Shown here one piece after another: positions 4,201 to 5,691 of a stretch of DNA of 16,647 bases; the first letter of the stretch is position 1, and every line of letters starts with the position of its first letter. Source of the DNA: a virus. Taxonomy: Duplodnaviria; Heunggongvirae; Uroviricota; Caudoviricetes. The stretch lies in IMG/VR virus record IMGVR_UViG_2703718798_000004; one strand, written 5' to 3'. A program made the translations under genes and the position numbers. Below the pieces are notes generated by a model. The model ran no database searches and was not told the DNA's origin. It worked only from the letters and a program-made list of their open reading frames with translations.

Positions 4201-5691
4201 TCAGTATGCGCGCTGGAACAGCCCGATGCCTTCATTGTCATTTGTCGACGTAATTTCATTACACACCATCCATGAGCCCGGAACTGAGGATAGGTTGCCG
4301 TCAATGCCATCGGTGTTAGCTTTCATATAGTTTCCGTTTTCGTCTTTGATTAGGGCGCATCGCTTAAGGCGTGAACCCGATACAGTTTCTCCTGGCTGAT
4401 AGGTTCTGCCGATGTCGGTTATATACGGGGCTAGTGCGGCAATAATGTATGTTCCGATGCTGTAAATTTCCCCGGGTACCAGCCTTCCGGTTGGCCCTTG
4501 TGGTCCATGTGGCCCCGTTTTACCCGCAGGACCTGCCGGACCAACCGGCCCCGGAACACCCTGTGCCCCCGCTGGTCCCCTTTCACCTCGTGGCCCTGCC
4601 GGACCTGCCTTACCTTCCGCTCCGGCGGTACCATCCTTTCCTGCGGGGCCTGCCGGGCCTGCATCACCTTTGGGACCAGGTGCGCCAGCCGGTCCCCGTG
4701 GGCCTGCTGGCCCCACTGCACCAGGTGCGCCAGGTTCCCCCCTGTCCCCCTTCGGTCCGGGGACTGCTGCCCGGGTTGCTGCCTCTTCTGCCTTCGTTTT
4801 TGCTGCCTGCACTTCTGCCATTACCGCTTTCACAGCCTTTGGGGTTGCCGCTTTTGTTTCATCATCGCTGTTGGTATCGCTGCTCAGCTGTACAACACCT
4901 TTCTGTGATGTGCTGGCATCCGGAACACTGGCGACACTGCCTGCGGGACCCGCAGGACCTGCAGGGCCGGTTTCTCCCCGAGGGCCTGCGGGACCTGCCG
5001 GACCTGTTGCGCCAGGTTCACCTTTATCCCCTTTCGGGCCGGTTTGCCCTGCCGGACCCTGTGGTCCGGGTGGTCCGGCCTCTCCACGTGGGCCGGTGTC
5101 ACCTTTCGGCCCCGGCGGTCCGCCCGGGTCACCTTTATCGCCCTTCGGTCCCTGTGGACCTGTTTCTCCCCGTTCTCCCTTTGGCCCCGGCTCACCTTTT
5201 GGTCCGACCGCCCCCGTTGCCCCGGCTGGTCCCTGTGCCCCTGTGGCACCCTGTGGACCTGTGTCCCCCTTCTCGCCCGCCGGTCCCCGGGCATTCTCTG
5301 CCCGTTTCTTCGCTTCCTCTGCACTCGCCGCCGACGCTTCAGCACGCTTCAGGATTTCCGCTGCCACCGCTTCCAGCTCTGCAAGCGCTTTCGGGTAATA
5401 CTGCGCCTCATCCTGTTCCATCAGAAATTTATTCAGCGTTCCCGGCTCAGAATCCGCCTTCACCAGAATGTCACCCACATACGACGGGGCGTACCCTTCC
5501 GTGTTCAGCGTCACCCGGTACCACCCCGGCTCCACATCAAAACTGTAACTGCCGGTTTCCCCCGGCTGCCCCTGCGCCACCGTGGTGACAATCACTGTCT
5601 CCGTGGTGCGTCGCGCTTTCAGCTCTATGGTGCATCCCGGCACCGGCTTCCCGGTGCCGTCCTTCAGCACGCCCGATATTCTGACTGTCAT
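4201..5691 (-). CDS. stf: Side tail fibre protein with lambda Stf-like N-terminal domain and two long collagen-like Gly-X-Y repeat blocks, 496 aa
   Basis: N-terminus [28 protein letters not shown] resembles the lambda Stf N-terminus as I recall it ([17 protein letters not shown]...). Residues ~136-251 and ~311-401 are near-uninterrupted G-X-Y triplets. The central segment [30 protein letters not shown] resembles the conserved Stf motif. GGGAGA ribosome-binding site 5 nt before the ATG at 5691. Confidence 0.85.
4489..4761 (-). repeat. Collagen-like Gly-X-Y coding repeat block 2 (~30 triplets) within the tail-fibre gene
   Basis: Translation [93 protein letters not shown]. Confidence 0.85.
4939..5286 (-). 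repeat. Collagen-like Gly-X-Y coding repeat block 1 (~38 triplets) within the tail-fibre gene
   Basis: Translation [49 protein letters not shown]... with one irregularity (GDPGGPPGP). The DNA is a GC-rich 9-bp-periodic repeat that creates long spurious ORFs in other frames. Confidence 0.85.

Follow-up and report, generated by a model that had tools for sequence, protein, structure and literature searches.

In Ur-lambda, twelve N-terminal domains of Stf, the side tail fibre protein, make a collar round the gpV/gpM junction and, in threes, are joined to a trimeric bundle, which results in four trimeric side fibres; these fibres bind OmpC, speed adsorption, and show a hinge (PMC12617516). The collagen-like proteins of Escherichia coli prophages (EPclPs) have been sorted into EPclA to EPclD (Ghosh et al., 2012; PMC3368898). 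Here we describe a gene for a collagen-containing fibre of 496 amino acids (aa) at positions 4201..5691 (minus strand) of IMG/VR record IMGVR_UViG_2703718798_000004, a stretch of 16,647 nucleotides (nt) of Caudoviricetes DNA that was analysed as a whole and is called the window below. We consider it very probable that this gene is the side tail fibre gene, the counterpart of stf, of a lambda-like temperate siphophage integrated in the E. coli chromosome.

The EPclC class has the order PfN-Col-Pf2-Col, ends in a C-terminus that is not related to PfC, and as a rule lacks PCoil; its first-listed example, ORF-401 of prophage P-EibA of ECOR-9, is 479 aa long with collagen domains of 117 aa and 75 aa, and the listed collagen-domain lengths are 117/75, 106/102, and 118/117 aa (PMC3368898). 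This gene first entered the databases as part of prophage P-EibA (AF151091). EPclPs with two collagen domains carry the interruption G-X-P-G-G-P-X-G (PMC3368898). Experiments on EPclA demonstrated that it is trimeric, with a genuine collagen helix (melting temperature 42 C) and a dumbbell shape with a hinged stalk, and its C-terminal domain trimerises and renucleates the collagen helix (PMC3368898). Proteins with a DUF4376 domain are tail fibre chaperones in Alteromonas phages V22 and A5, and that of V22 is essential for the production of active fibres (PMC10579305).

Domain layout and family membership of the fibre

The fibre gene and its domains are as follows.

4201..5691, minus strand: predicted side tail fibre gene, 496 aa, of EPclC architecture (PfN, Col1, Pf2, short coil, Col2, tip)
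5290..5691, minus strand: phage_tail_N (PfN) domain, residues 1-134, with a beta-sandwich collar domain at ~1-91 and a helical segment at ~95-134
4942..5286, minus strand: collagen block 1 (Col1), residues 136-250, with 18 + 20 Gly-X-Y triplets, interrupted at GDPGGPPG (187-194)
4759..4941, minus strand: non-collagen spacer, residues 251-311, with a Phage_fiber_2 (Pf2) repeat at 260-301 and a short Ala/Lys/Glu-rich helix at 294-310
4489..4758, minus strand: collagen block 2 (Col2), residues 312-401, with 30 unbroken Gly-X-Y triplets, or 31 with GRL counted (to 404)
4204..4488, minus strand: distal tip (knob) domain, residues 402-496, of the "...LFQR" family, presumed to be a trimerisation and receptor-binding knob

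The gene is exactly one unbroken open reading frame (ORF), from an ATG at 5691 to a TGA at 4203-4201, with a GGGAGA ribosome-binding site (RBS) 6 nt 5' of the ATG; an earlier note on this DNA had named interruption of the gene as a reason to doubt its reading, and all 496 codons proved to be intact. In Pfam, the product matched phage_tail_N at residues 1-134 (E 1.6e-42, all 134 model positions covered), Collagen in four stretches (E 7e-32), and Phage_fiber_2 at residues 260-301 (E 3.6e-16). Counted in register, residues 136-189 hold 18 Gly-X-Y triplets, residues 191-250 hold 20, and residues 312-401/404 hold 30-31, the break between the first two runs being a single residue within GDPGGPPG (G-G), in agreement with the ~38 and ~30 triplets of the earlier estimate. 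The longest run is 31 triplets, vs. a maximum of 10 in 2000 shuffles of the fibre protein, and Pro occupies position X in 36 of the 68 in-frame triplets. These 68 triplets suggest that the fibre would form a true trimeric collagen helix, as demonstrated for rEPclA. From the sequence, only ~40 helical residues separate the beta-domain from Col1; the helical segment at ~95-134 probably opens the trimeric bundle.

The plus strand opposite the collagen DNA carries three long Pro/Gly/Arg-rich ORFs (4449-5588, 4670-5398, and 5044-5706; 379, 242, and 220 aa), which we rejected as genes and regard as by-products of GGN/CCN periodicity in collagen-coding DNA; such antisense ORFs could mislead gene callers.

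For comparison with lambda, orf-401 and orf-314 of the lambda record were joined over the known frameshift, which gave a rebuilt Ur-lambda Stf of 774 aa as reference. In BLASTP, fibre residues 1-129 were 53% identical to Stf 1-129 (E 6e-38) and residues 251-293 were 63% identical to Stf 348-390 (E 2e-11), so that the Stf-like N-terminal ~130 aa and central ~40-aa motif of the earlier note are borne out; beyond residue 293, no similarity to the rebuilt Stf was found by BLASTP, consistent with the earlier statement that the last ~95 aa are unrelated to the Stf C-terminus. The N-domain also matched the solved N-terminal domain of Ur-lambda Stf (PDB 9e7m/9mgh, E 2e-30), and residues 253-301 matched the Mu/P2-type tail fibre S chains 5yvq/8ju3 as well. 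The fibre thus shares with lambda Stf the homologous N-terminal collar domain, the Pf2 motif, the genomic position after J, and a presumed accessory role in adsorption. In contrast, the fibre is 496 aa long and Stf 774 aa, Col1 stands in place of the Ala/Ser-rich coiled coil of lambda, Col2 and the 95-aa knob stand in place of its T4-gp37-like OmpC-binding distal half, and the neighbour is a DUF4376 protein instead of the chaperone Tfa. The earlier note held that two collagen runs replace the Ala/Ser-rich shaft; this is right for block 1, but block 2 together with the tip replaces the T4-gp37-like distal half, not the shaft.

The position after J is seen in the genes of the tail module.

12114-15356, minus strand: tape measure protein gene of the lambdoid tail module
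5876..9406, minus strand: J, central tail fibre/tip attachment protein, 1176 aa (Pfam Ig_J, FNIII-A_GpJ, Phage-tail_3, and Phage_Tail_Tip)
5692..5875, minus strand: spacer of 184 nt between J and the fibre gene, without lom, with a hairpin and T8 at 5726-5711
3606..4181, minus strand: putative tail fibre assembly/chaperone gene, 191 aa, DUF4376 (Pfam E 7e-19; phrog_1141 E 2.5e-76), 19 nt 3' of the fibre stop

On the minus strand, the genes H-M-L-K-I-J-fibre-chaperone in this order form a complete lambdoid tail module, and because J lies directly upstream, the fibre gene is at the stf position of that module. As in Stf-type loci, the PfN anchor is present and J (5876-9406), the fibre gene, and the DUF4376 gene (3606-4181) follow one another on the minus strand; the T4-gp37-like distal region and the lambda-type Tfa of such loci are not found here. 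Because nothing matches past Stf residue 390 and the neighbour is unlike Tfa, we place the fibre in the Stf family on the strength of its anchor alone; its distal module is a different one.

The fibre has the PfN, Col, Pf2, Col order of EPclC, a non-PfC C-terminus (no PF06820 match at E <= 0.01 in Pfam), and the break motif GDPGGPPG at residues 187-194, and the lengths of its collagen blocks (~115-118 and 90-93 aa) lie inside the span of the published EPclC examples. It shares with P-EibA ORF-401 the identical domain order, including the G-X-P-G-G-P-X-G break, the non-PfC C-terminus, and the lack of a long PCoil, and residues 1-342 are ~98-99% identical (98% at the nt level), as the alignment to collagen-repeat fibres of other prophages advised in the earlier note brought out. 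Also common to both are the downstream 191-aa DUF4376 protein, the eib gene, orf-156, and orf-60. The two differ in that Col2 is longer here (30 triplets vs. a second collagen domain of 75 aa in P-EibA), in that the P-EibA tip is another LFQR member (~20% identical) with a correspondingly different chaperone N-terminus, and in that lom is present upstream in P-EibA but absent here. EPclA and EPclB have the PfN anchor, the collagen shaft, and triplet-number polymorphism in common with the fibre, whereas both carry a ~110-aa PCoil and a PfC (PF06820) C-terminal domain, neither of which is present here.

The fibre type is already known, since the EPclC mosaic architecture is in the literature and near-identical alleles are annotated. 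The allele of E. coli NCTC9112 is 99.7% identical at the nt level and is named "prophage tail fiber N-terminal domain-containing protein" in RefSeq, where the gene order is the same and a tRNA-Ser gene lies close to the end of the prophage. The fibres of phage records PhiR5_1 and PhiR12_1 to PhiR12_5, whose listed hosts are E. coli C or K-12, are 99.2-99.6% identical over their unmasked parts; a literature search found no description of PhiR5/PhiR12 fibres or receptors. A match to the fibre gene occurs in 150 of 5426 complete E. coli genomes, and at >=80% coverage in 24 of them. Among database proteins, P0012-P0015 have an unrelated N-terminal sequence fused to the tip, and many other matches are partial collagen-like proteins on short contigs. 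We take these fused and partial proteins to come from breaks that assembly or gene calling introduced within the collagen repeats; the copy number and length of such fibres are therefore probably under-reported in draft genomes.

Collagen joints, tip types, and the DUF4376 neighbour

Full-length copies in complete genomes are 1491, 1500, 1518, 1554, or 1563 nt long. The PhiR5_1 fibre has one more triplet in Col1 and eight more in Col2 than the window fibre and is otherwise ~99% identical, so the triplet-number variation between strains that the earlier note proposed to look for does occur between near-identical alleles. Of 120 homologues that were retrieved, those bearing the window-type tip had 12-21 triplets in Col1b and 25-39 in Col2, and the last block of the larger VGLFQRIS-tip family had 28-72.

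Exchange of shaft and tip, proposed in the same note together with a proneness to recombination, is supported by joints inside both collagen blocks. Homology to P-EibA (98% nt) breaks off inside Col2, at 4665 (residue 342), and sets in again at 3944, corresponding to chaperone residue ~80. In PhiR5_2, a 61.5-kb phage whose fibre gene stands in another tail gene context and encodes a long PCoil-like segment, the shared distal fibre starts at 5160, i.e., at residue 178 inside Col1, and is carried on a different N-terminal domain. Tandem- and direct-repeat scans of the fibre gene gave only short 9-nt periods, in ~2 copies, and families of repeats that are 60-80% identical, and so do not support high-frequency slipped-strand "phase variation"; because the DNA repeats are short and imperfect, recombination between alleles or paralogues is a likelier origin of the triplet indels than rapid slippage. 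In genomes with a match, the median number of matching places is 3 and the maximum 12, so recombination partners are available.

The last 95 aa of the fibre, ending ...GIGLFQRAY, had no Pfam match and no solved-structure match in a PDB sequence search, in which the only matches were chlorophyll-binding proteins (E 0.12), which we rejected. Four tip types were found after collagen, ...GIGLFQRAY (window), ...ITLFQRIA, ...VGLFQRIS, and ...LTLFQRIV (P-EibA), which are mutually 20-29% identical and in alignment share G12, G38, P70-G71-x-W73, and L90-F-Q-R93. We provisionally group as LFQR-type those tips which consist of the C-terminal 84-106 aa after collagen and have G12, G38, P-G-x-W, and a terminal L-F-Q-R-x-x; the window tip has all of these features. 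In a HMMER search of 1.84 billion representative proteins, the real relatives of the tip were all at least 91% identical among the matches listed, and six weak multi-stretch matches to long tandem-repeat proteins were judged to be repeat or composition noise. A word-indexed search with the tip alone retrieved close E. coli sequences only, many of them partial proteins, and a profile search from the four types retrieved E. coli proteins only; one Citrobacter farmeri protein bears the window-type tip. The LFQR tips thus appear to be a small, uncharacterised family, seen only in E. coli and Citrobacter.

Among the matches listed, window-type tips vary at ~14 positions (19-28, 37, 46-51, 65-66, 83, and 87), which lie mostly outside the five strands of an AlphaFold2 (AF2) monomer model (predicted local distance difference test 71, predicted template modelling score 0.65). 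The model resembles predicted tail-fibre proteins of other phages, and the tip has a weak match to the "tail protein" family phrog_17472, at the C-terminal end of the latter. The knob is plausibly a recurrent small fibre-end domain, a view that we hold with moderate confidence, and we infer that the tip sets receptor specificity.

The 191-aa DUF4376 protein had no significant similarity to lambda Tfa in BLASTP. Against P-EibA ORF-191A it is 35% identical in the first 80 alignment columns and 83% identical in the rest, and in PhiR5_2, which has the same tip type, the N-terminus is the same except for the first few residues; the N-terminal ~80 aa thus co-vary with the tip type. Like V22 gp27 and A5 gp9, the 191-aa protein has a DUF4376 domain, which lies in its C-terminal half, and a gene position right after the fibre gene, but the fibres that gp27 and gp9 serve are unrelated to the E. 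coli fibre. By analogy with these proteins, the DUF4376 neighbour would be the cognate chaperone of the fibre. The joints, taken together with the co-variation of tip and chaperone, point to an exchange unit that is made up of the distal collagen, the knob, and the chaperone N-terminus.

The chaperone start (4165-4190, minus strand) has an A7 run in the window and PhiR5_1, where the gene begins with ATGTGG (MWKKISN...); PhiR5_2 has A6 and a start four nt upstream (MNVEKISN...), and its protein is otherwise unchanged.

Proposed function and alternative explanations

We propose that three chains would form one fibre, whose N-terminal ~91-residue beta-sandwich domains would join the collar at the junction of tail tube and tail tip as in Ur-lambda, a function suggested by the 53% identity to lambda Stf, and whose helical segments at ~95-134 would bundle the three chains. 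The shaft would consist of two collagen triple helices of ~33 nm and ~26 nm (calculated at 0.286 nm per residue), and the ~60-residue Pf2 spacer between them probably acts as a hinge, by analogy with the hinges in Ur-lambda fibres and EPclA. The 95-residue C-terminal knob would trimerise, nucleate collagen folding from the C-terminal end, and bind a cell-surface receptor, so that reversible adsorption would be faster before J engages its own receptor. The variable N-terminal ~80 residues of the DUF4376 chaperone would recognise the knob. The low-complexity collagen DNA would provide in-frame joints for exchange of the cassette of distal collagen, knob, and chaperone N-terminus, and would also be the site of triplet gain and loss and hence of changed fibre length.

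Several points weigh against this explanation. Lambda side fibres are not needed for plaque formation (PMC12617516), and because they are dispensable, the fibre gene could be under weak selection. The inducibility of the prophage and the incorporation of the fibre into virions are predictions from sequence. In addition, the hairpin and T8 in the J-fibre spacer (5726-5711, minus strand) lie immediately 5' of the fibre RBS and could lower fibre expression unless late antitermination reads through.

We tentatively entertain a further-reaching form of this explanation, which we think possible but rather doubtful. The LFQR knob and the chaperone N-terminal ~80 residues would make a receptor-binding cassette with at least four deeply diverged specificities, swapped at collagen joints between unrelated tail types, and the triplet number of the distal block (~18-72, ~15-60 nm) would serve as an adaptive tuner of length through the O-antigen or capsule.

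Among the alternatives, the one that survives best, although we judge it improbable, is that the knob is only a folding and trimerisation nucleus, as foldon is, and that the DUF4376 protein stays at the fibre end and binds the receptor, as gp38 of T2/T6 does. The small size of the knob (95 aa), the nucleation of collagen folding by EPclA C-terminal domains (PMC3368898), the proposal that DUF4376 chaperones act as fibre "caps" (PMC10579305), and the co-variation of the chaperone N-terminus with the knob all fit such an arrangement. However, the same paper proposes these caps as transient, and the co-varying part is the variable part of the chaperone, which agrees with a role in recognising the knob; elsewhere the chaperone is 83% identical across tip types and leaves little receptor diversity. 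Moreover, the placing of the variable tip positions in the AF2 model, mostly outside the strands, is what may be expected of a receptor-binding surface on the knob itself.

Somewhat less credible still is that the gene is left over, in decay, from a defective prophage, its product being intact by chance and no longer assembled, like the frameshifted stf of laboratory lambda. Many collagen-like fibre genes of enterohaemorrhagic E. coli are indeed frameshifted (the EPclA* entries; PMC3368898), the homologue P0036 has a frameshifted tip, and the dispensability of the lambda side fibres noted above would allow such decay. The window gene, however, is a full-length ORF with an RBS, the tail module is open throughout from H to J, and the chaperone gene is intact. 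The layout of J, fibre, and chaperone recurs in the deposited phage genomes PhiR12 and PhiR5_1, for which laboratory E. coli hosts are listed, and the narrow variation of the listed window-type tips (at least 91% identical, with differences at ~14 positions) is unlike decay.

Finally, that the fibre is a collagen-like surface adhesin or virulence factor expressed by the lysogen, comparable to streptococcal Scl1/Scl2 or Legionella Lcl, and not a part of the virion is most unlikely, for although the NCBIfam models SclB, Lcl, and SclA match at E 1e-30 to 1e-39 and a virulence-type moron, an Eib-like immunoglobulin-binding autotransporter, lies near the gene, the scores of 106-135 bits fall far under the curated cut-offs of 325-500 bits and are due to the Gly-X-Y repeats alone, so that we rejected the Scl/Lcl identity, the sequence lacks a signal peptide, an LPXTG motif, and a membrane anchor, the protein begins with the virion-attachment domain of Stf, and the gene lies within the tail operon with J on one side and the fibre chaperone on the other.

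Neighbouring genes and biological meaning

A side tail fibre of the kind proposed here would act beside a J protein whose own specificity is probably different from that of lambda. J is 74.6% identical to lambda J at the nt level over window 6920-9406, and its C-terminal 199 aa (5876-6475) are ~35% identical to lambda-type J and 94-96% identical to the PhiR12 phages; the primary receptor of J thus probably differs from LamB. A lom gene is not present between J and the fibre gene (5692-5875), where lambda, P-EibA, and PhiR5_1 all have one; in the PhiR12 phages and in NCTC9112, too, the layout is without lom. With P-EibA and PhiR5_1, homology sets in at 5718, within the spacer hairpin, 27 nt upstream of the ATG.

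Three further genes lie downstream of the tail genes.

1886-3127, minus strand: Eib-like YadA-anchor autotransporter gene, 413 aa, with YadA_anchor at residues 355-413
1325-1795, minus strand: ORF-156A homologue, 156 aa, 98% identical to P-EibA ORF-156A
1-~1050, minus strand: 5' part of an eaaA-like autotransporter gene, which runs off the window end (from alignment to AF151091)

A hairpin at 3577-3596 with a GC-rich 8-bp stem (GGGGGTGA-loop-TCACCCCC) lies 10 nt past the chaperone stop; it has a good T-tail on the plus strand only, and marks the border between the tail operon and an AT-rich region (GC 38-46%) before eib. The Eib-like autotransporter is 68% identical to EibA overall and differs in the N-terminal passenger part, and window 1-2525 has ~99% DNA identity to P-EibA, which indicates a mosaic joint inside the eib gene. 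An eib-like gene also follows the fibre-chaperone pair in P-EibA, PhiR5_1, PhiR5_2, and NCTC9112. The 156-aa ORF (1325-1795), which is always alongside eib, is 92% identical to its PhiR5_1 counterpart; it had no Pfam or NCBIfam family and matched only phrog_6585, a family of function unknown. Downstream of the tail genes there is thus, in the eaaA-like gene, a second virulence-type moron.

In kind, this allele brings nothing new to the EPclC fibres. Side fibres of this kind help to decide which E. coli strains temperate phages adsorb to, including phages that carry eib, eaa, or stx, and therefore they matter for how virulence genes spread and for the engineering of phage host range. Being compact and placed behind a simple collagen linker, the knob could be handy as an exchangeable module where fibres are to be retargeted.

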